From NCBI GenBank assembly GCA_007692655.1, contig REBQ01000240.1, positions 10,727-74,726 of the forward strand: DNA of 64,000 nucleotides, read 5' to 3'. The notes beneath the pieces were generated by a model. It searched no databases and was not told the origin of the DNA. It saw only the letters and a list, made by a program, of their open reading frames with translations. Each line of letters opens with the position of its first letter. Within the stretch, counting starts at the first letter, position 1. Origin of the DNA: Halomonas sp. (GTDB lineage Bacteria > Pseudomonadota > Gammaproteobacteria > Pseudomonadales > Halomonadaceae). Positions 1-53,771 of this stretch are shown one piece after another. Made by a program: the position numbers and the translations under genes.

Positions 1-245
1 TTAAACATCCCGCTGTGTCAGAAGTCGCTGTCATTGGCCAGCCGGATGAAAAGTGGATTGAGGCCATCACAGCAGTGGTTGTGGTGAAAGAGGGGCAAGA
101 GGTCAGTGAAGATGAGCTGATACACCATGTGAAGACACTGATGGCCCCCTATAAAGTGCCGAAACATATCCTCTTTACCGATGCGTTGCCCAAGAGCACC
201 GCAGGGAAAATTCTCAAGCGTCATCTTCGACAAGCGCTTAAGTAG
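1..245 (+). CDS. Acyl-CoA synthetase (AMP-binding family), C-terminal fragment truncated by the window edge
   Basis: Frame is open from the window start (KHPAVSEVAVIG...PDEKWIEAITAVVV...PKSTAGKILKR), the typical AMP-binding C-terminal domain. Confidence 0.85.
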   Translation, partial: KHPAVSEVAVIGQPDEKWIEAITAVVVVKEGQEVSEDELIHHVKTLMAPYKVPKHILFTDALPKSTAGKILKRHLRQALK

Positions 246-361
246 AGTGAGCGCAGAAGTAAACATGCAACCAAAGAGCTTCAAGGAAAAAACGAACCAC
301 TACCCCCTTCATCGTTGAATAAAGTGGTTTAGCGGAGCGACAGAAAACATAGGAGATAGCC

Positions 362-1549
362 ATGCGATTGGATGATGTAGTGATTTTAGCTGGCGCACGT
401 ACCGCCATCGGTGGGTTTGGTGGTTCGCTTTCAAGCATGGCCCCTTTTGAGCTGGGTGCGATAACCGCCAAAGAAGCGTTGCTTCGAGCGGGCATAGAGG
501 GAGCTGATATTGACCACTCGGTCTATGGCCATATTATTACGACAGGCTCTCAGGATGCTTATCTGGCGCGACACATTGCGCTAGAGGCCAACGTACCCCA
601 AGAGGCCGGAGCGTTTAACGTCAACCGTCTATGCGGCTCCGGTGTTCAGGCAGTGGTCTCCGCCGCGCAGCAAATCACCCTTGGCGACAGTCGGTTAGCG
701 CTGGCTGGAGGTGCCGAGTCAATGTCGCGGGGCGCCTACCTTCTGCCCCCGAACGCGCGCAACGGCGTGCGCATGGGGGATATGAGATTCCAGGATTTAA
801 CCTTGGGCGTATTAAGCGACCCTTTTGGCAGTGGCCATATGGGCTGCACTGCGGAGAATATTGCTAAACAGTATGGGTTAACCCGGGAACAGCTCGATCA
901 ATTTGCCCTTGATAGTCATCAAAAAGCGTCGCGGGCGATTGCTGAAGGCCGTTTTGACGCTCAAATTGTGCCCGTCGAGGTTAGACAAGGTAAGCAAACT
1001 ATCCACTTCTCCCGCGATGAGCACGTGCGCGAAGGCGTTCAGCTTAGCGATTTAGCGCGGCTCAAGCCCGCCTTCCAAAAAGAGGGTGTGGTGACCGCTG
1101 GCAATGCCTCAGGGATCAACGATGGGGCGGCCTCCTTAGTGCTGGCACATGTTGATGAAGCCAAGCAGCGTGGCTTAACGCCCAGAGCCCATCTTCGCGT
1201 CGCCGCGACGGCAGGTGTCGACCCAACGCTGATGGGCTTGGGACCAATCCCGGCGGTTAAACGCTGCCTGGAGCAAGCGGGGCTTAGCATCAACGATATG
1301 GATGTCATCGAATCCAACGAGGCCTTTGCTGCCCAAGCGATGGCAGTAGCAGACACGCTTGGCTTCCCGCTGGAGAAGCTTAACCCCAATGGCGGTGCCG
1401 TTGCTTTGGGGCACCCAGTGGGGGCCACCGGCGCCATTTTGGTACTTAAAGCGCTACACGAATTAGAGCGTATTAACGGCCGCTACGGATTAATAACACT
1501 GTGCATTGGGGGTGGTCAGGGTATCGCTCTCCTGATTGAGCGCAGCTAG
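362..1549 (+). CDS. Acetyl-CoA C-acyltransferase (beta-ketothiolase, BktB-like)
   Basis: 395 aa with thiolase motifs [22 protein letters not shown] and CIGGGQG; RBS AGGAG. Confidence 0.92.
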   Translation: MRLDDVVILAGARTAIGGFGGSLSSMAPFELGAITAKEALLRAGIEGADIDHSVYGHIITTGSQDAYLARHIALEANVPQEAGAFNVNRLCGSGVQAVVSAAQQITLGDSRLALAGGAESMSRGAYLLPPNARNGVRMGDMRFQDLTLGVLSDPFGSGHMGCTAENIAKQYGLTREQLDQFALDSHQKASRAIAEGRFDAQIVPVEVRQGKQTIHFSRDEHVREGVQLSDLARLKPAFQKEGVVTAGNASGINDGAASLVLAHVDEAKQRGLTPRAHLRVAATAGVDPTLMGLGPIPAVKRCLEQAGLSINDMDVIESNEAFAAQAMAVADTLGFPLEKLNPNGGAVALGHPVGATGAILVLKALHELERINGRYGLITLCIGGGQGIALLIERS

Positions 1550-1591
1550 ATTTTCTTAATCGCCAAAAGAACAACTGCAAAGGAGCTTTAT

Positions 1592-3244
1592 ATGCCTACA
1601 GTCACGCCGAAAATTTTACCCGCAGCACCTTCAGCGACAAACCCTGATTTAATGATTGGGGACTTACTTGAGGCGGGTGTTCGCATGGCGGGTGACAATC
1701 AAATTGTTTACCGGGACCAAAGCCGTCACAGCTATAAAAGGTTTCAGGAGCGGGTGCACCAGTTGGCCCATACGCTTACTTCGCAGGGGGTTGAAGCAGG
1801 CGATGTGGTGGCTGTTTTAGATTGGGACAGTCACCGCTATTTGGAGTGTTTCTTTGCGATCCCAATGATTGGAGCCGTACTGCATACGGTGAACGTCCGT
1901 TTAGCGCCTGAGCAAATTCTCTATACCATGGAGCATGCCGAAGACGTTTTTGTCATCGTGCACGAAGAGTTTTTGCCGTTGATCGAGCCATTGGCTGAAA
2001 AACTAACCCAAGTGCGTGGTTACCTGCTATGCCAGGAAGCCCCTAAGGCGGTCAATACCCCGTTACCACTAGCGGGAGAATTTGAAGAGCTGATAGCCCA
2101 ACAGCCCACTCATTACGATTTTCCCACTTTTGATGAAAATGCCGTTGCCACGCTGTTTTACACCACCGGCACTACCGGAAATCCCAAAGGGGTTTTCTTT
2201 ACTCATCGCCAGTTGGTGCTGCATACACTGGGAGAGGCAAGCTCTTTCCAGGCGCCTGGTTTTGAACTGCTAAACCGCGACAAAGTGTATATGCCCATTA
2301 CTCCCATGTTTCACGTTCATGCCTGGGGTGTGCCCTACACCGCCACGCTGATGGGAGCAACGCAGGTCTACCCAGGCCGCTACGAGCCAGAAATGCTGGT
2401 CAAACTCTTGGTCAGCGAGAAAGTCGACTTCTCCCACTGCGTGCCCACGCTTCTCAACATGGTGGTGAGCGCTGAAGCCATTGCTTCCAAAAAGGTCGAT
2501 CTTGCTGGTTGGAAAGTGTTGGTTGGCGGCAGTGCGTTAACCCAGTCGCTGGCGAGTAAAGCGTGGGAGTTGGGTATTGATACGCGCAGTGCTTATGGCA
2601 TGTCAGAAACCTGTCCGCTACTCACCGCTGATATCCTGCCGCACGATATCGACAAGGCTGATTTTGAGACTCAACTGCCTTGGCGCTGCAAAGCAGGGCT
2701 TCCAGTTCCCCTCGTTAAACTGCAAGTAGTCGACGCCGATGGTACGCCGCTGCCCCATGATGGGAAAAGTGTGGGGGAGGTTCGTGCAAAAGCGCCATGG
2801 TTAACCCAGGCTTATTACAAGGAAGAGGTGCGTAGTGAAGAGCTATGGCGCGATGGTTGGCTACACACTGGGGACGTTGGGTCACTCGATGAGCATGGCT
2901 TCTTAACCATCAGTGACCGCATCAAAGATGTAATTAAAACAGGGGGCGAATGGCTCTCCTCACTTGAGTTGGAAAGCTACATAAGCCAATACCCAGGTAT
3001 CAGTGAAGTGGCAGTGATAGGGGTGGCAGATGACAAATGGGGCGAACGACCTGCGGCGTTGGTCGTGGCAACGGATCTTAATAATCCACCTACCAGCGAA
3101 GCCGTGCAGGCATTTTTAGAGCAGTTCGTGACGCAGGGTAAGCTCAACCGTTGGGCAATCCCCTCCATGATACGTTTCGTCGACGAGATACCCAAAACCA
3201 GTGTGGGCAAGCTGGATAAAAAACGTATTCGTACCGAAATTTAG
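1592..3244 (+). CDS. Fatty-acid--CoA ligase (medium-chain, AlkK/DmdB-like)
   Basis: 550 aa with P-loop YTTGTTGNPKG, YGMSET, WLHTGD and PKTSVGKLDKK; RBS AAGGAG. Confidence 0.9.
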   Translation: MPTVTPKILPAAPSATNPDLMIGDLLEAGVRMAGDNQIVYRDQSRHSYKRFQERVHQLAHTLTSQGVEAGDVVAVLDWDSHRYLECFFAIPMIGAVLHTVNVRLAPEQILYTMEHAEDVFVIVHEEFLPLIEPLAEKLTQVRGYLLCQEAPKAVNTPLPLAGEFEELIAQQPTHYDFPTFDENAVATLFYTTGTTGNPKGVFFTHRQLVLHTLGEASSFQAPGFELLNRDKVYMPITPMFHVHAWGVPYTATLMGATQVYPGRYEPEMLVKLLVSEKVDFSHCVPTLLNMVVSAEAIASKKVDLAGWKVLVGGSALTQSLASKAWELGIDTRSAYGMSETCPLLTADILPHDIDKADFETQLPWRCKAGLPVPLVKLQVVDADGTPLPHDGKSVGEVRAKAPWLTQAYYKEEVRSEELWRDGWLHTGDVGSLDEHGFLTISDRIKDVIKTGGEWLSSLELESYISQYPGISEVAVIGVADDKWGERPAALVVATDLNNPPTSEAVQAFLEQFVTQGKLNRWAIPSMIRFVDEIPKTSVGKLDKKRIRTEI

Positions 3245-3260
3245 CTTAGTTGCTAAACCA

Positions 3261-4274
3261 TCAACTAACGTTGCCCGCCGTGCGCGCTTTGCGATACGCG
3301 GCGGGCGAATTGCCTGTCCAGGTTTTAAACGCACGGCTAAAACAGGCCAAGTCTTCAAAGCTTAGCTCTTCTGCGATATTGATAAGCGGTTTCTCACTGC
3401 AAGTAAGCGCCTGGATAGCATAATCTCGGCGATATTCATCTTTAACTGCTTGAAAATGGGTGCCTTCCTGCTTTAAGTGCCTTGCCAGTGTGCGTGCGGA
3501 CATATGCAGTGCATCGGCCACGCTATGCACCGTACCTGCGGTGCGCAGATGACGTGTCAGATGTTCCCGCACGCGATGACTGAGCAGATGATCTTCAAAC
3601 GAAACGTAAAACCAATCCTCTGGTGCCCGCTTTAAAAAGCCACCAAGATGCTTTTTGGTTTGCCGAATGGGGTGATCCAGCAGTCCACGGTCAATATAAA
3701 TAGCAGTTTGACGTTGATCAAAGCGTACAGTGCCTGGATAGAAGTAAAGGTAATCGGCGCTATGGGGTGGCTGAGCGTAAGCACACTCCATCAAGATAGG
3801 TGGTATTTTACGGGCAATTAACCACGACGCGATGCCATGAAACAGCTTCAACATGAGCTCATGAATTAAAATACGGCTGCCTACTAATGGCCTGCGCTCC
3901 ACCAAGGCCATGCGTGCCAGGTTTCCCTGTACCGAAAACGCATAGCCAAAGTCGTCGAGCAGAATACGGAAAAACTGCGTGTATCGGTGCAGCGCGACCT
4001 GCAAGTTAGGCGCATCGAGCATGCTTAAGCAGAGTAGTTTTAAGGCGCCACCACGCAGCGGGCGAGAAAAGAAACCGGGGGTTTCATCATCTAGCTCGTT
4101 AACTAGCACACGATAAAGCTCAGCAAACTGTGCAACAGTAACGCGACCATGGGGGGCGGCGAGCAGGAACGGAGAAATACCCGCACGTTCGAGATAGCGC
4201 GTAGGTGGCGTCGCGCTGTTGGGTAAGTTGTTAAATAGTGCATTTACAAAATGCATCGAGACGGTCACCGTCAC
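3261..4274 (-). CDS. AraC-family transcriptional regulator (long N-terminal domain type)
   Basis: 337 aa with a C-terminal AraC HTH (VADALHMSARTLARHL...LSFEDLACFSRAFKTWTGNSPAAYR); GTG start. Confidence 0.88.
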   Translation of the reverse strand: MTVTVSMHFVNALFNNLPNSATPPTRYLERAGISPFLLAAPHGRVTVAQFAELYRVLVNELDDETPGFFSRPLRGGALKLLCLSMLDAPNLQVALHRYTQFFRILLDDFGYAFSVQGNLARMALVERRPLVGSRILIHELMLKLFHGIASWLIARKIPPILMECAYAQPPHSADYLYFYPGTVRFDQRQTAIYIDRGLLDHPIRQTKKHLGGFLKRAPEDWFYVSFEDHLLSHRVREHLTRHLRTAGTVHSVADALHMSARTLARHLKQEGTHFQAVKDEYRRDYAIQALTCSEKPLINIAEELSFEDLACFSRAFKTWTGNSPAAYRKARTAGNVS

Positions 4275-4437
4275 TGTCTACCTGCCGCTAAAGAGTGTGT
4301 TTGGAAAATTTATACTTAATCACTACCAAACGGTATCACGCGGTTGGTTTACCCTCTATATGATTCCCTTCCATAGTTCCCCCTCCAAGCGCGTGCATGC
4401 GTTACACTGTGCGCCTCACGATTAAGGAGGACACCGC

Positions 4438-6354
4438 GTGACCCTGTTACGACTTGAACAGCTGCAACTCGCTTACGGCACACATGTACTACTCAACCGC
4501 GCCGACCTAACGGTTGAAAAAGGCGAGCGGCTGGCGCTGGTCGGGCGCAACGGCACCGGCAAGTCCACACTGCTGAAGTTAGTGGCGGGAGATATCCTGC
4601 CAGACGATGGCTCAATCTGGCGCGCACCGGGTCTTAAAATAGGTGTCTTGTCCCAGGAGTTACCTGAGTCATCTGGCCTGACTATTTTTGATATGGTTGC
4701 CCAGGGGTTGCCAGAGGCGGGAGAACTACTCTCTGAGTACGACCATCTCATCAATGATCCAGAGCCTGATATGAATCGTATGGCGACGTTGCAAACGCGC
4801 CTGGAAGCCATTGATGGCTGGTCTTACCACCAGCGTATCGACACGGTATTGACCCGCTTAGGCTTACCTCCCGCGGCTGAGATGAGCTCACTGTCTGGCG
4901 GTTGGCGTCGTCGTGTCGCGCTGGCTCGTGCATTGGTGGCTGAGCCGGATTTGCTGCTTCTCGATGAGCCCACCAACCATTTGGACTTAGACACCATTGC
5001 CTGGTTGGAAGAGCAGCTGCTGGCGTTCAACGGTGCGGTGCTGGTGATTACCCATGACCGGGCGTTTCTTTCCAAGCTGGCAACCAATATTCTTGAGTTG
5101 GATCGCGGCCAGTTGGGACGCTACCCAGGCAAGTACGTTGAGTATCAGGCCCGCAAACAGCATGAGCTTGAAGTGGAAGCCCGAGAGCACGCGGAGTTTG
5201 ATAAAAAGTTAGCCCAAGAAGAAGCCTGGATTCGTCAAGGCGTCAAAGCTCGGCGTACCCGCAATGAAGGCCGGGTTCGGGCGCTGGAAGCGATGCGCAA
5301 CGAGCGCAGCCAGCGTCGTGAACGCCAGGGTAATGCCAACTTGACGGTGGATCGTGGCGAGCGCACCGGCAAACGCGTTGTAGAGCTGCAAGGCGTCACC
5401 CAGCGGTTTGGCGACGAGGTCATCTTGCGTGATATCAACCTTGAAGTGCTACGCGGTGACCGGATAGGCTTCCTTGGTCGCAACGGGGCGGGCAAGACAA
5501 CCCTGCTGAAAATCCTGCTGGGTGAGTTAGAACCTAGTGAAGGCAAAGTACAAATGGGCACTAACTTAAAAGTGGCCTATTTCGATCAGCTTCGGGCCGG
5601 GCTTGAACTTGATAAGACCGTCTACGATAACGTTGCTCAGGGCAGTGACCGCGTTAGTGTTGGCGGCAAAGATCGTCACGTGATGAGCTACCTGCAAGAT
5701 TTCCTGTTCACCCCCGAGCGAGTGCGCCAGCCGGTTAAAGCGCTCTCCGGTGGTGAGTCCAACCGGTTGCTGTTAGCCAAGTTGTTTACCCAGCCGGCTA
5801 ACGTGCTAGTGCTCGATGAGCCAACTAACGACCTCGACATGGAAACTCTGGAGCTGTTGGAAGAGTTACTGCTCGATTTCGATGGAACATTGCTGCTGGT
5901 TTCCCATGATCGAACCTTTATGGATAACGTCGTTACCAGCATGCTCGCGTTTGAAGGCGAGGGTGTTGTGCGTGAATACGTGGGTGGATATACCGATTGG
6001 ATTCGCCAAGGCGGCAAGCTACCGCCAGCTCCCTGGGAAGGGGCGGCGCGTCAGCGTACTGAACCGACCTCGGAAGCACCCAAAAAAGTAGTTGAAGCGC
6101 CGGCGGCACCCGCCAAGAAAAGTGTCAAGCTCTCCTACAACTTGCAGCGTGAGTTAGATATTTTACCTGCTGAAATTGAGCGTCTTGAAAGCGATGTCGA
6201 GTCGCTGGAAAGTGAGATGGCGGATCCCGCTTTTTATCAGCAGGGTGCGGATACCGTTGCGGAAAAGCTGCAACTGCTTGAAAAAACGCAGCAGGCGTTG
6301 GAGGTTGCGATGGAGCGCTGGATGGAGCTGGAAGCCATGGCCGCTGGCGAATAG
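4438..6354 (+). CDS. uup: ABC-F family ATPase Uup
   Basis: Two ABC cassettes (GRNGTGKST/LSGGW/LLDEPTNHLD and GRNGAGKTT/LSGGE/VLDEPTNDLD) plus a C-terminal coiled coil (KLSYNLQREL). Confidence 0.93.
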   Translation: MTLLRLEQLQLAYGTHVLLNRADLTVEKGERLALVGRNGTGKSTLLKLVAGDILPDDGSIWRAPGLKIGVLSQELPESSGLTIFDMVAQGLPEAGELLSEYDHLINDPEPDMNRMATLQTRLEAIDGWSYHQRIDTVLTRLGLPPAAEMSSLSGGWRRRVALARALVAEPDLLLLDEPTNHLDLDTIAWLEEQLLAFNGAVLVITHDRAFLSKLATNILELDRGQLGRYPGKYVEYQARKQHELEVEAREHAEFDKKLAQEEAWIRQGVKARRTRNEGRVRALEAMRNERSQRRERQGNANLTVDRGERTGKRVVELQGVTQRFGDEVILRDINLEVLRGDRIGFLGRNGAGKTTLLKILLGELEPSEGKVQMGTNLKVAYFDQLRAGLELDKTVYDNVAQGSDRVSVGGKDRHVMSYLQDFLFTPERVRQPVKALSGGESNRLLLAKLFTQPANVLVLDEPTNDLDMETLELLEELLLDFDGTLLLVSHDRTFMDNVVTSMLAFEGEGVVREYVGGYTDWIRQGGKLPPAPWEGAARQRTEPTSEAPKKVVEAPAAPAKKSVKLSYNLQRELDILPAEIERLESDVESLESEMADPAFYQQGADTVAEKLQLLEKTQQALEVAMERWMELEAMAAGE

Positions 6355-7103: not shown

Positions 7104-7646
7104 ATGGATTGGTTGATTATTGTCTTTATTCTGCTGTTTTTGATTGCGCCGTTGAAGTGGTTAAAGCCTAACCCGCGTCAAAAACGTCAGCAAGCACTTC
7201 GCAATCAGGTTAGCAAACAGGGCGTTAACATCAAAATGGAGAAGCCGCCGCTGCATCATTTTAAGGGCACTATGCCTGCTTATCGTTGGCGTTACCCCCA
7301 TGATCAGCCAGGACCGGATTTTCTACTGGTGAGGGATAGCCATGCCAGCGAAGCGTTGGAACCTTATTACGCAGGCTGGCGTTGGCGCATAGCCCCCTTG
7401 CGGCCGCTGCCTGAAACTGCTGTTGAGCCTTTAAAAGCATTGCTGGAGCGCCTTCCTCAAGACGCATTGGTGGTTCAGTCGAGCCCGCATACCCTGACGT
7501 TATGGTGGTGGGAGTCACAAACGGCGGAGCGTTTTTCCACCTACTTGCCAGAGTTCCAGCAATTGCATCAATCACTGCAGGGCTGCGCTGACCAGCCAAG
7601 CAAAAAACCGCTAGCTAATCCCGGTCAGCCCAGTCGACGTTACTAG
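7104..7646 (+). CDS. Hypothetical protein with an N-terminal membrane anchor
   Basis: 180 aa with hydrophobic N-terminus MDWLIIVFILLFLIAPLKWL; RBS AAGGA. Confidence 0.7.
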   Translation: MDWLIIVFILLFLIAPLKWLKPNPRQKRQQALRNQVSKQGVNIKMEKPPLHHFKGTMPAYRWRYPHDQPGPDFLLVRDSHASEALEPYYAGWRWRIAPLRPLPETAVEPLKALLERLPQDALVVQSSPHTLTLWWWESQTAERFSTYLPEFQQLHQSLQGCADQPSKKPLANPGQPSRRY

Positions 7647-47853: not shown

Positions 47854-50054
47854 GCGATACGCTTAACGCTCAGGATGAACAGCTATATACCCTCCATGGC
47901 ATGTGGTGCACCAGCTGCGCCCTCGCCGTGGAAGGGTCTCTCAAACGGCTGGAGGGGGTACGCGAGGTTAGCGTTCATTATCCAAGCGCTACCCTCTGTA
48001 TCAGCGGCACTCCGTCCGCCACCCAACTGACAAACCTTGCCCAGAACATTAAGCGCCTGGGTTATCGCCTTACTGAACTGGAGCCGGTGGCGGACGCCCA
48101 CGCGCGACTGGAAGAAGAGAGCCGTTATTTAACCCTGAGACTGATGGTTGGCTCGCTGTTCGGTATGTGGACAATGCTCGCTTCAATACTGATTTATGCA
48201 GGAGCGCTACCCAGTGAGCAGGTCGAGCTGGTAGTGGCCTGGGTATCGGGGGCGTTTTCCCTTCCCGTTGTACTCTTCGCAGGCGTGCCTTTTTATCGAG
48301 CCGGATGGCGCACACTGCTGGCCAAGCGGCCGGGGATGGATGTGCTGGTTAGTTTGGGTGTGTTGGGCGCAGTGTTCGTCTCGGTTGGGCTGTTATGGCG
48401 GGGCTCGGCTGAGGTGTATTTCGATACGGCGGTCATGCTTATCGTCCTGCTGCTAGTCGGCCGGCTGGTGGAAACCCTGTGTCGCCACCGTGGGCTAAAA
48501 GCATTGGATACGTTGTCACTGCCTGAGGTGAACATAACGGTTTGGCAAGATGACAACCGGGCAACAATTCCCGTGGGTGAGGTGGCCGTAGGCATGCGCA
48601 TTGAGCTTACACCAGGTGAGATAGTGGCACTGGATGGCACTCTTGTAGCTCCCGCCTGGATAGATACCGCATCGCTGACCGGTGAAAGTCTGCCGCGCTA
48701 CTTTAACGCAGGGCAGGCTGTATACGCCGGTTGCCGCTACCTTGGTGCAACGCCGCTGGTCATGCAGGTAAGTGCCGGAGTAGGTCAACGGCGGCTAGAC
48801 CGACTGTGTGAGGAGATGCGTCGTTATCAGGCGAAAAAGGGCGAGCTGCAGAAACTCGCTGACCGCTTTGCCGCTTGGCTCAGCCCCGCCGCACTGGTAC
48901 TGGCGCTGCTAACGCTACCGATGGCGCTATTGTTGGGGGTGGGCTGGGAAGATGCCTTTGTACGGGCACTTTCCGTATTAGTGGTGGCATGCCCCTGTGC
49001 AGTAGGGCTGGCGGTGCCACTGGCAAGCCTGGCGGGTAGCGGTCAGGCCATGCAGCAAGGAGTGGCGCTGCGCGATCCATCCGCCCTTGAAAGCTTGGCG
49101 AGGCTTCGCTCCGTCGCACTGGATAAAACAGGCACGCTTACCAACGGCCGCCATTCGGTGCTGCACTGGCAGGGGCGGGATGGCGTTGAACAAAGCGACT
49201 TACAGCGAAAGCTAAGCGCTGCGGTGGCGGGAAGCGAACATCCGTTGGCTCAAGCCTTGGTAGGCTGGTCGCGCAGTCAACGCAGTTCAGGCCATCATCC
49301 TAATGAGCATGTCCTCGAAGTCAACGAAGCGCCGGGTGAAGGGCGTCGCGTTCAATTAAGCGGCGGTGAGTGGCTGTCAGTGGGCAGCGAGGCTTGGCTT
49401 GCTCGTCAAGGGGTAGCGCTACCTGAGGCCATGGACGATGCTGTTTTCGCTTTTACTTCTCAGGTGATGCTAGCAGACGAAGCTGGCTGGCTAGCAACAT
49501 TCTACTTGGCTGACCAACCGGTAAGTGATGCCGCGGTAAGCGTCAATAACTTGATAAATTCAGGCTATGTGGTGGCGATGGTCAGCGGTGATCGACAGGG
49601 CGCGGTAAGTTGGTTGGGCGAACAGGTAGGGCTCAGTCGTGAAGCTTGCTATGCCCAGCGATCCCCGGAAGCCAAAGCGCGACTACTGCAGGGGCTGCCA
49701 TCGCCAACGCTCTATGTGGGCGATGGCTTAAACGATACCTTGAGCTTGGCTGCGGCAGATGTCGGTGTCGCGCCGTTAAGTGCCAGCGAAGCCGCTAGGC
49801 AAGGGGCTGCCGCGCAGCTCTTGACACCGGGAATTGGGGGAGTAGTGACACTGATCAGCGTTGCCAAACGCACCCGGCGCATTATGGTTCAAAACCTGTT
49901 TTTTTCAGCCCTCTACAACACCTTGGCGTTAGGGCTGGTGGTTATCATGGCAATACCACCGCTGATCGCCGTTCTCGCCATGGCGGCTAGTTCGTTGACG
50001 GTGACTCTTAACGCCGCAAGGCTGGCTTGGGCAGAACTGGATGACAATGGTTAA
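47844..50054 (+). CDS. P1B-type Cu(I) ATPase (CcoI/FixI-like)
   Basis: HMA motif GMWCTSC, TGES, CPC, DKTGT, SEHP, GDGLND, YN and MAASS; TTG start overlaps the upstream stop. Confidence 0.9.
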   Translation: MSVSDTLNAQDEQLYTLHGMWCTSCALAVEGSLKRLEGVREVSVHYPSATLCISGTPSATQLTNLAQNIKRLGYRLTELEPVADAHARLEEESRYLTLRLMVGSLFGMWTMLASILIYAGALPSEQVELVVAWVSGAFSLPVVLFAGVPFYRAGWRTLLAKRPGMDVLVSLGVLGAVFVSVGLLWRGSAEVYFDTAVMLIVLLLVGRLVETLCRHRGLKALDTLSLPEVNITVWQDDNRATIPVGEVAVGMRIELTPGEIVALDGTLVAPAWIDTASLTGESLPRYFNAGQAVYAGCRYLGATPLVMQVSAGVGQRRLDRLCEEMRRYQAKKGELQKLADRFAAWLSPAALVLALLTLPMALLLGVGWEDAFVRALSVLVVACPCAVGLAVPLASLAGSGQAMQQGVALRDPSALESLARLRSVALDKTGTLTNGRHSVLHWQGRDGVEQSDLQRKLSAAVAGSEHPLAQALVGWSRSQRSSGHHPNEHVLEVNEAPGEGRRVQLSGGEWLSVGSEAWLARQGVALPEAMDDAVFAFTSQVMLADEAGWLATFYLADQPVSDAAVSVNNLINSGYVVAMVSGDRQGAVSWLGEQVGLSREACYAQRSPEAKARLLQGLPSPTLYVGDGLNDTLSLAAADVGVAPLSASEAARQGAAAQLLTPGIGGVVTLISVAKRTRRIMVQNLFFSALYNTLALGLVVIMAIPPLIAVLAMAASSLTVTLNAARLAWAELDDNG

Positions 50055-50060
50055 GAAAAA

Positions 50061-50363
50061 TTAAACACTATAGCCGAGGGCCTGTTTAAGCCGCTCGGCA
50101 TGGTGTGCCACCCAGCGTGGGTCAATCGCACCCCAGTCACGAATTTGATAGCGGCCAATGTTATGGCGCTCACCTTCATCTTTACTAAATACGCACTCGA
50201 TATCCAACTCGGCAAGCGACGCAATTGTATCCTGGGCCGTGCGACGCGGCATACCGGTGGCTTCCATCAGCGCGGGCACACTGGCAACCCCTTGCTCAAT
50301 CAAATGCGCCACATACAGGCGGCGATAAAAACTCGATTTGGTTTTGCTGAGTGTGACGGGCAT
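50061..50363 (-). CDS. Small winged-helix HTH protein (HTH_43-like)
   Basis: KTKSSFYRRLYVAHLI...TGMPRRTAQDTI...YQIRDWGAI. Confidence 0.8.
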   Translation of the reverse strand: MPVTLSKTKSSFYRRLYVAHLIEQGVASVPALMEATGMPRRTAQDTIASLAELDIECVFSKDEGERHNIGRYQIRDWGAIDPRWVAHHAERLKQALGYSV

Positions 50364-50455
50364 GGATTGTCCTAGTATAAGGTGTAAAAGAAGATGTGAT
50401 TATCAACGCAGCTTAGCGTAACGTTCGCTTCTATACGAAAGCCTCCAACGGTCCC

Positions 50456-51295
50456 ATGATGTCGAACCAGCATAGCGCCTTAATCCCCGCCGGTGGGGTA
50501 CAGCAAGCGCTCGCCAGCACTATTGATGCGTTGCATACCGCTCACTTTACCTCACACTTGACTCACTTGCTGCGCACACTGGTTGAGTTTGATTGCGCGG
50601 TGATAGTTGGTTACCGCTCAGGTAAACACCCAATTTATCTTTATGACTCCCTGCATCAACGGCGTGAGCTGCTTTTTCAGCGTTATTTGCTGCATGCCTA
50701 TCAGTTTGACCCGTTTTTACAGCAACTAGAGCAGCGCAAGGAAGAGAATGTGTTCCATGCCGTCGGCGCTAATGTGCGCAGCAGGGACTGGCCTAGCCAT
50801 TACCATCAGGATTTTTACCAACAAACAGGCTGGCAGGATGAGCTGTGTATGACACTGCGGCTAGTGGATGCTCGCTGGATAGTGGTGTATCTCGGTGTTA
50901 CCGGTGAACAGAAGCAAACACACTTTACCGATACCGACTGCCATGTTCTCAAGGGTTACCTCTGTGTGCTTGCGGCGCTTTGCCGACAACACTGGGGACA
51001 GGCACCTTTCCATCTCTCCACGCTGCCCGTTAATAGTGGGATTGGCGAGCAATTGCAGCAGGCGGCCGCCAGCTTTGGAAAAACGCTCTTGACGAAGCGA
51101 GAACAACAAGTCGCTGCGTTGATGGTTCAAGGGCTGGACACTCAGGAGATCGCCGAGTACTTAGCGATTGGCCATGGCACGGTAAAAAATCATCGCAAGC
51201 GAGTCTACGCGCAGTTAAGTGTTTCCTCCCTTAGCGAGCTGTTTGGCGTGTTTCTTAACCATGCTGCTGCATCAGGAGCAGTTGCTGACAAATAA
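50456..51295 (+). CDS. LuxR-family regulator with a GAF-like ligand-binding N-terminus
   Basis: C-terminal LTKREQQVAALMVQGLDTQEIAEYLAIGHGTVKNHRKRVYAQL; no receiver domain recognisable. Confidence 0.88.
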   Translation: MMSNQHSALIPAGGVQQALASTIDALHTAHFTSHLTHLLRTLVEFDCAVIVGYRSGKHPIYLYDSLHQRRELLFQRYLLHAYQFDPFLQQLEQRKEENVFHAVGANVRSRDWPSHYHQDFYQQTGWQDELCMTLRLVDARWIVVYLGVTGEQKQTHFTDTDCHVLKGYLCVLAALCRQHWGQAPFHLSTLPVNSGIGEQLQQAAASFGKTLLTKREQQVAALMVQGLDTQEIAEYLAIGHGTVKNHRKRVYAQLSVSSLSELFGVFLNHAAASGAVADK

Positions 51296-51305
51296 TCGCG
51301 TACTT

Positions 51306-51321
51306 TATCCCTTTAGGGATA
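51306..51321. promoter_or_regulatory. 7-2-7 palindrome, putative operator for tyrS
   Basis: TATCCCT-TT-AGGGATA is a perfect inverted repeat; possible -10 TAGCCT at 51345-51350. Confidence 0.55.
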
Positions 51322-51381
51322 TCGTTCTTAGTCTGGTCGGGCCTTAGCCTAGTGCCATTGTTAAATGGCTAAGGGGGCGAC

Positions 51382-52665
51382 ATGAGCGCTAAAGCACAAT
51401 GCAACGATCTGCTCCAAGATCTTCACCGAAGGGGGCTGATTGCACAGTCCACCCATGCGCAGGAACTTAGCGAACTGCTCAGTACACCGCAAACGATTTA
51501 CTGTGGTTTCGACCCTACGGCGGGTAGCCTGCATATCGGACATTTAGTCCCGCTTCTAATGCTTAAGCGCTTTCAGGATGCAGGCCATCAAGGCGTCGCT
51601 CTGGTGGGGGGAGCCACCGGTATGATTGGTGACCCCAGTTTTAAAGCGACAGAACGAACACTCAATTCGTCAGAAACGGTTAAGGCTTGGGTGAAAGACC
51701 TGAACGAACAGATTTACTGGCTGATGGCTCCGCATTTAGAGGCGCCAATTCGCGTCATAAACAATGCAGAGTGGATAGGCGAGATCAATGTGATTGATTT
51801 CTTCCGCGACGTTGGCAAGTACTTCTCCATAAATACCTTGATTAACCGAGAGTCGGTAAAGCAGCGATTAGAGCGTCCCGACCAGGGAATGTCGTTCACC
51901 GAATTTAGCTACGCGCTGCTGCAGTCCTATGATTTTGCCCACTTAAACCGTTCACTAGGGTGTCGTTTACAGATTGGTGGTAACGATCAGTGGGGCAATA
52001 TTGTCAGCGGTATCGATCTTACCCGTCGCCTCAACGGTGAGCAGGTCATGGGCATGACACTGCCGCTGATTACCAAGTCAGATGGCACCAAGTTTGGTAA
52101 AACGGAAAGTGGTACCGTATGGCTCGATCCAGAGCAAACATCGCCCTATAACTTCTACCAGTTTTGGCTAAACACTGACGACAGCGATGTGTACCGTTTT
52201 TTGCGCTACTACACGTTTATTAGCTGTGACGACATTGATGCTATTGAATCAAGCGATGCAAGCTCAAGCGGTAAGCCTCAAGCCCAGCGTATCCTTGCTG
52301 ATTCGGTGACTCGGTTTGTACATGGGGAGGAGGGACTGAACGCGGCGCAGCGTATTTCCCAGGCGCTATTTAGTGGAGATGTTGCTGCGCTAACACTTTG
52401 TGAACTCGAGCAACTTGCTTTAGATGGATTGCGCTGTGTTGAGATAGCGCCAGATGAAACGCTGGATAGCGCACTTGTATCAGGCGGTTTAGCCGGCTCT
52501 AAACGCCAAGCTCGCGAGTTGATAGTAAAGGGGGCCGTGCGATTGAATGGGGAGTGCGCCTCCTTCTTCAGCCAGCTAGGGGATAGTTTTGCGTTATTTG
52601 ATACCTACTGGGTCGTACAAAAAGGCAAAAAGCACTTTTGTTTGTTTAAGCGTCCGTCTCAGTAA
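51382..52665 (+). CDS. tyrS: Tyrosine--tRNA ligase (E. coli TyrS type)
   Basis: [47 protein letters not shown] and a C-terminal S4 domain. Confidence 0.95.
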
Positions 52666-52688
52666 TTTTCAAACAAGTGGCTCGAGAA

Positions 52689-53771
52689 TTAAAATAGATC
52701 TCCCTGTGCCCGCGGTGGTCTAAAATCTCGCGTATTTAAGCCCTGCTCGGTGCGTTCCTGCATGTTCCATTGGCGGCTGGCGCGGGTAAAACGTTGAGCG
52801 ATCAAATCTGCAAAGACGCCTTCACCGCGAAAGCGCTTACCAAATTTGGCGTCGTATGCCTTGCCGCCCCGGCACTGACGCATGAGACTCATCACTTTGG
52901 CAGCCCGCTCGGGGTAATGTGCTTCTAGCCACGCCTCAAATAGCGGTGCGACTTCATGGGGCAAGCGCAGCAACATCCAGGTCGCCGTGCGTGCCCCCGC
53001 GCGGCTAGCGGCTTCTAAAAGTTTTTCGATTTCATGATCCGTTAAACCAGGAATAACCGGCGAAATAAGCGTGCCCACGGGAATGCCTGCTGTATTAAGT
53101 TCGCGAATCGCCCTTAAGCGTGCTTGGGGTGATGCCGCCCGTGGTTCCAGGGAGCGTTTTAAATTGGCATCCAGGCTGGTCAGGCTGACGAATACCCGCA
53201 CTAGGCGGTGCTCAGCCATTTCCGATAATAGCTCTAAATCCCGCAGCACTAGGGTGCTCTTAGTCACCAGCGTTACCGGGTGACGACATTCCAATAACAG
53301 TTCCAATAAGCGCCGGGTGGTTTTATAGGTTGCCTCGATAGGCTGGTAACAGTCGGTGTTGCCGGACAGGTTGATCGGTCTGCATACATAGTTAGGGTGA
53401 CATAGCTCTTCAGTGAGGTGCTCCACCAAACCGCTACGAGCGATCAGCTTGGTTTCAAAATCCAGTCCCGGCGACATATCCCAATAGGCGTGAGAGGGGC
53501 GGGCATAACAGTAAACACAGCCGTGCTCACAACCGCGATATGGGTTCAGCGAGCGATCAAAAGGTAAATCCGGTGATTTGTTCCAAGAAAGCGCGCTTTT
53601 GCTTACCTCCTCACGCACTTGGGTGGCGATGGTTGAGGAGGTTTCTTCCTGCCACCAACCGTCACCTTCTACCACGCTGTGGGTAGGTGCAAAACGATTA
53701 TGCGGGTCATAGGTCGCCCCCCGGCCTTTATGCACGGTGGAAACACTTGGTGCCTGGTCGGGAGTCAGCAT
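52689..53771 (-). CDS. PA0069-family (SplB-like) radical SAM protein
   Basis: NPYRGCEHGCVYCYARPSH, SGNTDCYQP, LRLPHEV. Confidence 0.9.
   Translation of the reverse strand: MLTPDQAPSVSTVHKGRGATYDPHNRFAPTHSVVEGDGWWQEETSSTIATQVREEVSKSALSWNKSPDLPFDRSLNPYRGCEHGCVYCYARPSHAYWDMSPGLDFETKLIARSGLVEHLTEELCHPNYVCRPINLSGNTDCYQPIEATYKTTRRLLELLLECRHPVTLVTKSTLVLRDLELLSEMAEHRLVRVFVSLTSLDANLKRSLEPRAASPQARLRAIRELNTAGIPVGTLISPVIPGLTDHEIEKLLEAASRAGARTATWMLLRLPHEVAPLFEAWLEAHYPERAAKVMSLMRQCRGGKAYDAKFGKRFRGEGVFADLIAQRFTRASRQWNMQERTEQGLNTRDFRPPRAQGDLF

Follow-up and report, generated by a model that had tools for sequence, protein, structure and literature searches.

A candidate mobile module of a VqsR-like LuxR solo and an accessory tyrosyl-tRNA synthetase in Halomonas sp.

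In a 64,000-nucleotide stretch of Halomonas sp. DNA (contig REBQ01000240.1, positions 10,727 to 74,726 of the forward strand, assembly GCA_007692655.1; hereafter the window), a gene for a one-component regulator of the LuxR family is directly followed by a tyrS gene of the Escherichia coli type, which encodes a tyrosyl-tRNA synthetase (TyrRS) (Table 1). The assembly comprises 4.05 Mb in 255 contigs and is 90.6% complete. An earlier reading made from the letters of this stretch (the sequence-only reading) had described the regulator gene, a gap of 86 bp, a full tyrS with HIGH and KFGKT motifs and a perfect 7-2-7 palindrome ahead of a possible -10 element, and we found every one of them in place. 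It is likely that the two genes form a self-contained and horizontally mobile module, in which the linked TyrS is a conditionally expressed spare enzyme under control of the regulator.

Table 1. Features of the regulator-tyrS locus (positions in the window) and signature residues of the linked TyrS (residue numbers)
Feature	Position	Strand	Details and basis
VqsR-like LuxR solo regulator gene	50456-51295	+	279 aa; stop codon 51293-51295; open reading frame list
Spacer from regulator gene to tyrS	51296-51381		86 bp; sequence read directly
Predicted operator, perfect 7-2-7 palindrome TATCCCTTTAGGGATA (TATCCCT-TT-AGGGATA)	51306-51321	unstranded	sequence and family conservation
Degenerate -35 position TCGTTC, abutting operator	51322-51327	+	family position-frequency table
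-10-like hexamer TAGCCT (family pattern TAnnnT)	51345-51350	+	23 nt after operator
Shine-Dalgarno sequence AAGGGGG	51371-51377	+	4 nt ahead of tyrS ATG; sequence read directly
Accessory E. coli-type tyrS	51382-52665	+	427 aa; TIGR00234, PF00579, PF22421 and S4 matches
Module with its own spacers, absent from empty sites of relatives	50364-52688	unstranded	2.3 kb; flank comparison
HTH_43 winged-helix gene	50061-50363	-	100 aa; divergent from luxR, 92 bp away
TyrS signature G48	residue 48		E. coli D45; HIGH loop
TyrS signature N201	residue 201		E. coli S199; GGSDQ to GGNDQ
TyrS signature Y277	residue 277		E. coli F275
TyrS signature P166	residue 166		E. coli E164

A count of TyrRS genes bore out the proposal of the sequence-only reading that this tyrS is an auxiliary second copy. 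The assembly contains another TyrRS, of the TyrZ type, on contig C13, which has 399 aa and the motifs HLGH, GGTDQ and KMSKS and is 29% identical to the linked TyrS; its gene is divergent from an anmK-like gene. The TyrZ type was found in all 24 genomes sampled from the same genus (Vreelandella, formerly Halomonas) and was the sole TyrRS in 23 of them. Only Vreelandella nigrificans (G004) also has an E. coli-type TyrS (83% identity). It is likewise the one genome of the 24 in which the regulator has an orthologue (62% identity), and this gene adjoins tyrS with the order and the flanks found in Halomonas sp. Because TyrZ is universal in the sampled genus and TyrS occurs only together with the regulator, TyrZ is the housekeeping TyrRS of the genus and the linked tyrS is accessory. 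Moreover, a search with TyrZ revealed exactly two TyrRS in each of 16 carrier genomes from 12 genera, namely one of the TyrZ type (58-94% identical) and the linked TyrS. Of 300 genomes sampled evenly from the whole class, 274 gave a TyrRS match and the Halomonas sp. genome was the only one with two enzymes, so that the two-enzyme state is uncommon and lineage-restricted; this sample was too sparse for further co-occurrence analysis. In draft assemblies of this genome and many relatives, tyrZ often lies a few hundred bases from a contig end, which is consistent with an adjoining repeat, probably an rRNA operon as in Pseudomonas.

When one genome per species was scanned, at least 228 genomes proved to have a relative of the regulator. 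Of the 228 loci, the best 80 were inspected, and in 77 of these the regulator gene has an E. coli-type tyrS (58-85% identical) as its direct neighbour; two of the three exceptions end at contig ends, and the third is a Shewanella locus described below. The tandem layout of luxR followed by tyrS is found in Halomonadaceae, Vibrionaceae, Alteromonadales and Marinobacter, and a divergent layout in Aeromonas, Oceanisphaera and Zobellella. When the flanking open reading frames were clustered, no third gene proved to be conserved; after the pair itself, the most frequent neighbour is seen in 12 of 82 loci or fewer. A biosynthetic cluster or a third partner gene was also considered, and none is conserved beside the pair in the 82 loci.

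The palindrome is conserved together with the pair. In a survey of 78 loci of the regulator family, it lies ahead of tyrS in 77, with 69 exact matches to the core TRTCC-N6-GGAYA and 8 matches with one mismatch, and the family consensus is aaacTgTCCCtttAGGGAtAT. Thus, the regulator-tyrS pair and the palindrome noticed in the single Halomonas sp. sequence extend to Vibrio, Shewanella and many other groups. The gap between the operator and the hexamer TAnnnT is constant at 23 nt in these loci, and the sequence of the gap is not conserved. Within the hexamer, the frequencies of T, A and T at positions 39, 40 and 44 of the alignment are 0.74, 0.84 and 0.84, and in the -35 position the first base alone is conserved (T at position 16, 1.00) and the rest is variable. 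A consensus scan found no consensus sigma-70 promoter in the 86-bp spacer. If TAGCCT is the -10 element, the operator covers about -51 to -36 and is centred at about -43.5, which is the arrangement used by class II activators of the LuxR/TraR type.

The position of the operator follows tyrS rather than luxR. In the divergent loci of Aeromonas, Oceanisphaera and Zobellella, the palindrome precedes both genes and keeps its distance to the tyrS -10 element. In Vibrio proteolyticus (L068), the operator and the -10 element remained directly upstream of tyrS, 900 bp from luxR; the approximately 900 bp inserted between the two genes there carry an open reading frame like that of a cold-shock protein (csp) and a small basic one. 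In Shewanella sp. MBTL60-007, the third exception mentioned above, a 2.2-kb contig (L088) carries an intact operator CATCCCTTAAGGGATA and, at the usual spacing, a -10 element TAATCT after the regulator gene (positions 820-900), whereas the other 1.3 kb of the contig contain no detectable tyrS; this locus may be a disrupted or rearranged copy.

With regard to other targets of the regulator, the extended motif TCCCTNNAGGGA occurs once in the 4.05-Mb assembly versus about 4 occurrences expected, and the core TRTCC-N6-GGAYA occurs 9 times versus about 15 expected. The sole other match to the full arms lies within an mfd-like coding region. A larger regulon was therefore rejected, and because the extended motif was found once and the core motif is not enriched, the regulator looks dedicated to tyrS, as far as sequence motifs can tell.

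The regulator consists of an N-terminal domain and a C-terminal helix-turn-helix (HTH) domain of the GerE/LuxR type at residues 211-262 (PF00196, 52.8 bits). No Pfam family matched residues 1-200, nor did the Pfam Response_reg (REC) domain match the protein, and the response-regulator models of NCBIfam touch only the HTH domain (residues ~193-269) with scores far under their cut-offs. Judging from these domain searches, the regulator is not a two-component response regulator, despite many database names. Among 23 members of the family, PF00196 matched all and PF03472 (Autoind_bind) matched none at E <= 1. On the other hand, a profile of the family matches the ligand-binding domain (LBD) of VqsR (PDB 5xhx_A) at residues 9-151 with an E value of 1.8e-11. 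The AlphaFold model (mean predicted local distance difference test score 81.8, predicted template modelling score 0.72) shows an alpha/beta/alpha sandwich (residues ~10-185) followed by the HTH domain. Its top match in Foldseek is again the VqsR LBD 5xhx (E 4.9e-9, template modelling score normalized by the target 0.82, root-mean-square deviation 2.8 Å, 20% identity), and the next matches are full-length SdiA, RhlR, TraR, QscR, CviR and LasR, and then GAF domains, so that the predicted N-terminal fold is GAF/PAS-like. The notion of the sequence-only reading that the regulator is of a ligand-binding type thus agrees with a LuxR-receptor-like ligand-binding fold, found by both the profile match and the predicted structure. 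We classify the protein by profile and model as a VqsR-like LuxR solo, and by its signature it does not appear to be a receptor of acyl-homoserine lactones. A gene for a luxI-type synthase was not seen adjoining the pair in any of the 82 loci, of which the immediate neighbourhood was inspected.

Relatives of the regulator with 40-70% identity were found by protein search in Vreelandella/Halomonas, Vibrio, Photobacterium, Shewanella, Colwellia, Pseudoalteromonas, Marinobacter and Providencia, and the Vibrio carriers include V. cholerae, V. parahaemolyticus and V. vulnificus. In the alignment of 23 members, the N-terminal stretches PIYLxDS, RELLFQxYL, DPF, FYxQTGWxDE and LCxQHW are invariant. 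In the recognition helix, the segment GT(V)KNHRK shows little or no variation, in agreement with the invariance of the operator. Distant VqsR-like LuxR paralogues (24-32% identity) in Vreelandella and a related family adjoin genes for an aldehyde dehydrogenase or an amino-acid/amine permease. This location hints that the LBD family commonly controls neighbouring genes of small-molecule catabolism and serves local small-molecule circuits.

The linked TyrS has all parts of a complete TyrRS. It scores 391.7 bits with TIGR00234 (cut-off 113.8) and 272 bits with PF00579, and the C-terminal tRNA-binding domain is recognized at residues 341-421 by PF22421 (48.8 bits) and PF01479 (S4, 27.3 bits). The motifs HIGH at 51, GGNDQ at 199 and KFGKT at 237 are intact, and alignment with 6hb5 (E. 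coli TyrRS, E 1e-153) shows identical residues at the equivalents of Y37, D81, Y175, Q179 and D182, just as the sequence-only reading had supposed for the tyrosine pocket. These features suggest that the linked TyrS is a competent TyrRS with aminoacylation activity. The replacement of GGSDQ by GGNDQ, which had also been pointed out there, turned out to be specific to a clade: N is present in 95% of the regulator-linked TyrS, and S in 9 of 10 single-copy TyrS. It is one of four signature positions, which we defined as at least 90% conserved in the linked enzymes and different in the 10 single-copy ones (Table 1). G48 (E. coli D45) presumably lies in the HIGH loop between T43 and H48, which act in the transition state (as known for the TyrRS of B. 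stearothermophilus and E. coli), and we take N201 (E. coli S199) to lie beside the ribose-binding D200/Q201. Thus, the changes D45G and S199N would fall in the ATP/adenylate loops and not in the tyrosine pocket, and may serve as a lead.

For the phylogeny, we compared 77 regulator-linked TyrS with the 10 single-copy TyrS (that of E. coli and nine that come from the same order but other families) in a quick maximum-likelihood tree by IQ-TREE. All 77 linked enzymes fall on one side of a branch and the single-copy enzymes on the other, with a support of 95 in the Shimodaira-Hasegawa-like approximate likelihood ratio test (SH-aLRT). Moreover, the linked TyrS of Halomonadaceae and Marinobacter nest among those of Vibrionaceae, and therefore horizontal transfer of the module is indicated. 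The linked TyrS of Pseudoalteromonas sp. A601 and ZZD1 (L049 and L069) lie inside the Vibrio harveyi clade with very short branches; this placement implies either a very recent transfer between orders or mislabelled assemblies.

Comparison of the flanks also indicates mobility. In two relatives without the module (G005 and G011), the HTH_43 gene and the gene for a PA0069-type radical-SAM protein are 47 bp apart, so that the 2.3-kb segment is best explained as an insertion, a precise loss elsewhere being less likely. In Vreelandella nigrificans, about 14 bp are directly duplicated (AAAACAAGTCTCCT twice) exactly at the junction of the module with the flank, at the 3' ends of the tyrS and radical-SAM genes (positions ~7330-7420 of locus L027); this duplication may be a footprint of the insertion event. 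No such direct repeat is present in Halomonas sp. at 52666-52688. The GC content of tyrS (0.50), luxR (0.52), tyrZ (0.51) and the genome (0.54) is uninformative on recent transfer.

The regulator is also encoded in 51 plasmid records, of which 24 are conjugative, including IncC plasmids in E. coli, Klebsiella, Enterobacter, Salmonella, Proteus, Providencia and V. alginolyticus. On the IncC plasmid pGD31-NDM (NZ_CP031297.1), the LuxR-type gene is followed by tyrS beside traF, with the operator CATCCCTAAAGGGACA and the hexamer TAGTGT 23 nt later. The module there is the last part of an island inserted ahead of traF (L108, positions 1-6000), which also encodes an RND (resistance-nodulation-division) efflux adaptor, a response regulator with a sensor kinase, a GGDEF protein, an AraC regulator and an EamA-family transporter.

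Evidence for the condition of the linked enzyme in living cells comes from Vibrio cholerae. The orthologous pair between pilU and ruvX corresponds to VC0464 (LuxR family regulator) and VC0465 (tyrS-1). In transposon insertion sequencing (Tn-seq) of V. cholerae, only vc0631 of the two TyrRS paralogues was essential (Chao et al., 2013; PMC3799429); VC_0464 and VC_0465 were tabulated as non-essential, and VC_0631 (tyrS-2, 1188 nt, 395 aa) as essential (PMC3799429). Judging by its length and by the census of two TyrRS in carrier genomes, VC0631 is probably the TyrZ-type enzyme. The linked TyrS of V. cholerae hence cannot cover for its essential paralogue in rich medium, which fits a gene that is silent until induced. 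The Tn-seq result also makes it slightly less likely that the inducer is plain L-tyrosine. Thus, the regulator-tyrS circuit offers an explanation why only one of the two TyrRS paralogues is essential in this species.

These results may be put together in the following mechanism. A dimer of the VqsR-like regulator would bind the single 16-bp palindrome TRTCC-N6-GGAYA centred near -43.5 and would recruit RNA polymerase, the promoter having a -10 element and no usable -35 element, thereby activating tyrS. Activation would require the active state of the LBD, which is presumably the ligand-bound one. TyrZ, encoded elsewhere, would be the everyday enzyme, and the linked TyrS would be off or too low to support growth in ordinary conditions; after induction, it would supplement or replace TyrZ. 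The most likely purpose would be correct charging of tRNA-Tyr when TyrZ is inhibited or error-prone, and conceivable triggers would be an inhibitor of natural origin directed at TyrRS or an analogue of tyrosine; the sequence-only reading had likewise proposed a tyrosine analogue, a TyrRS inhibitor or a modified tyrosine as the putative inducer. Within this mechanism, what we deduce rather than observe is that the regulator activates tyrS and does not repress it, that a ligand controls the regulator and that the cell benefits in the way proposed.

A more specific form of this mechanism is tentative, and we consider it possible rather than likely. The regulator may act as the receptor of a natural compound by which TyrZ is poisoned or misled, and may induce a TyrS that is insensitive or more selective owing to the D45G and S199N loops. 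The compound could be a TyrRS-directed antibiotic of aquatic microbes, or it could be dihydroxyphenylalanine (DOPA), a halogenated or nitrated tyrosine or D-Tyr. If this is the case, the module would be a widespread, mobile and inducible cassette for tolerance or quality control, and LuxR solos of the VqsR branch would gain their first ligand.

Several facts weigh against the picture of a compound-sensing activator of a back-up enzyme. The hosts of IncC plasmids already use TyrS as their housekeeping enzyme, which does not fit the simple logic of a back-up for TyrZ, and Tn-seq cannot distinguish whether VC0465 is not expressed or is expressed and insufficient for growth. The tyrosine pocket is identical to that of E. 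coli TyrS, so that a changed amino-acid selectivity is not evident from sequence, and the signature substitutions were drawn from a comparison with 10 single-copy TyrS only. In addition, an operator beside the -35 position would equally permit repression, and we know of no ligand of VqsR, so that the LBD of the regulator may bind no small molecule.

The last two points lead to an alternative that has the same wiring, in which the regulator is ligand-free or a repressor, and TyrS follows the amount of the regulator (by growth phase or upstream control of the luxR promoter) or is derepressed. VqsR is the closest structural relative, 5xhx is an entry of the LBD alone, the Autoind_bind signature is missing from the 23 members, and an operator that abuts the -35 position could occlude RNA polymerase. 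Nevertheless, the LBD is highly conserved, with invariant Y61, D64, R70, Y77, D85, W126, E129, R140, C176 and H179, and such conserved aromatic and charged residues are typical of a binding pocket under selection. A promoter without a -35 element also favours dependence on an activator, and the position of the operator matches the boxes of class II LuxR/TraR. We therefore regard this alternative as rather unlikely.

It is still less probable that the linked TyrS has a specialized task, namely supply of Tyr-tRNA for a non-ribosomal use, synthesis of dinucleoside polyphosphates or charging of a special tRNA. The failure to replace the essential paralogue in V. cholerae and the clade-specific D45G and S199N in the ATP/adenylate loops would agree with such a task, but no partner gene (tRNA-dependent transferase, cyclodipeptide synthase or biosynthetic cluster) is conserved in the 82 loci, and the catalytic motifs, the tyrosine pocket and the tRNA-binding domain are all intact. 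Two further explanations are scarcely credible. That the adjacency is incidental and the palindrome is a terminator of the regulator gene was suggested by a simple scan, which marks 51306-51321 as terminator-like with 6 pairs and a T-rich tail, but this is excluded by the divergent layouts, by the V. proteolyticus locus in which the palindrome stays with tyrS, and by the conservation of the half-site sequence itself beyond mere pairing, and a loop of 2-4 nt would make a poor hairpin. Similarly, resistant duplicates of aminoacyl-tRNA synthetases (aaRS) are often found in producer clusters (mupirocin, indolmycin, borrelidin, albomycin), but a role of TyrS in self-resistance to the product of a nearby cluster for a TyrRS inhibitor is very hard to reconcile with flanks that comprise oxidase/Cu-ATPase, radical-SAM and pgi genes and with the lack of any biosynthetic gene conserved beside the pair in any lineage.

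The preferred reading, an activated spare TyrS, can be compared with known systems. VqsR of Pseudomonas aeruginosa shares with the regulator a homologous LBD (with RY...DPF(Y) and DE...LG motifs), the architecture of an LBD and a GerE HTH domain, and an inverted-repeat site, whereas the identity is only ~20% and the operator sequence is different. VqsR controls quorum-sensing genes (qscR) and not an aaRS gene. Like the class II activators LuxR and TraR, the regulator would act as a GerE-HTH dimer on a palindrome situated in place of, or next to, a missing -35 element, the box being centred at about -42.5 there and presumably about -43.5 here; unlike them, it has no PF03472 signature, no luxI partner at the locus, a box of 16 bp instead of 18-20 bp and apparently a one-gene regulon. 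Duplicate aaRS for inhibitor tolerance are known, such as trpRS1 of Streptomyces coelicolor, which is induced by indolmycin, and the plasmid-borne mupirocin-resistant IleRS. They resemble the present case in that a second aaRS stands beside the housekeeping one and is conditional and/or mobile, including on conjugative plasmids; however, the type of regulator here is unrelated. In Bacillus subtilis, ywaE-tyrZ is described as a normally silent second TyrRS with its own regulator, and its TyrZ as strongly discriminating against D-Tyr (Williams-Wagner et al., 2015, J Bacteriol 197:1624, as cited in PMC11005379), which is taken to protect translation. Both systems pair a spare TyrRS with a dedicated transcription factor, but a MarR-type repressor and a T-box operate in B. 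subtilis, compared with a VqsR-like LuxR solo, an activator-type operator and no RNA element here. Moreover, the Z type is the spare enzyme there, whereas here the Z type is the housekeeping one and the S type the spare. By analogy, ywaE-tyrZ appears to be the closest functional counterpart of the module, and VqsR the closest relative of the regulator.

Except for the remark on V. cholerae in the Tn-seq study, we found no publication on the regulator-tyrS pair or on an aaRS controlled by a LuxR solo in a search that left most subscription journals outside. What may be new in this putatively inducible duplicate aaRS is the family of regulators and the defined operator. Duplicate aaRS are a recurrent route to antibiotic tolerance and translational quality control, and few of them have a clear dedicated circuit. 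The circuit predicted here is minimal, with one regulator, one operator and one enzyme. At least 228 genomes at species level have it, those of V. cholerae and Aeromonas among them, and in Enterobacterales it occurs on conjugative IncC plasmids. Should the signal turn out to be a damaged form of tyrosine or a TyrRS inhibitor from nature, the module would represent a new inducible protection of the genetic code, relevant to future TyrRS-targeted drugs. A reporter built on this circuit should also be a simple means to search for the signal, and hence for a function of LuxR solos of the VqsR branch.

Some other features of the locus and the genome deserve mention. A leader hairpin between CCTTAGCC and GGCTAAGG, in which the -10 region would pair with the Shine-Dalgarno sequence, was considered and dropped, as its fold is no better than those of shuffled sequences (z -0.58); the pairing is not conserved beyond a few Vreelandella loci. 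No T-box, riboswitch or other Rfam family was matched in 50000-53000. A comparison with anti-phage defence libraries gave a match at the level of the HTH domain only. ARAGORN detected 47 tRNA genes and no gene for tRNA-Tyr in the draft assembly, which is probably a gap of the assembly and not biology.

With regard to the neighbourhood, the module is flanked by a cluster of oxidase and Cu-ATPase genes, the PA0069-type radical-SAM gene and pgi. The HTH_43 gene beside the Cu-ATPase/oxidase cluster belongs to the flank and not to the module, because it is kept irrespective of the presence of the module, being found in 28 of 31 genomes of the genus.

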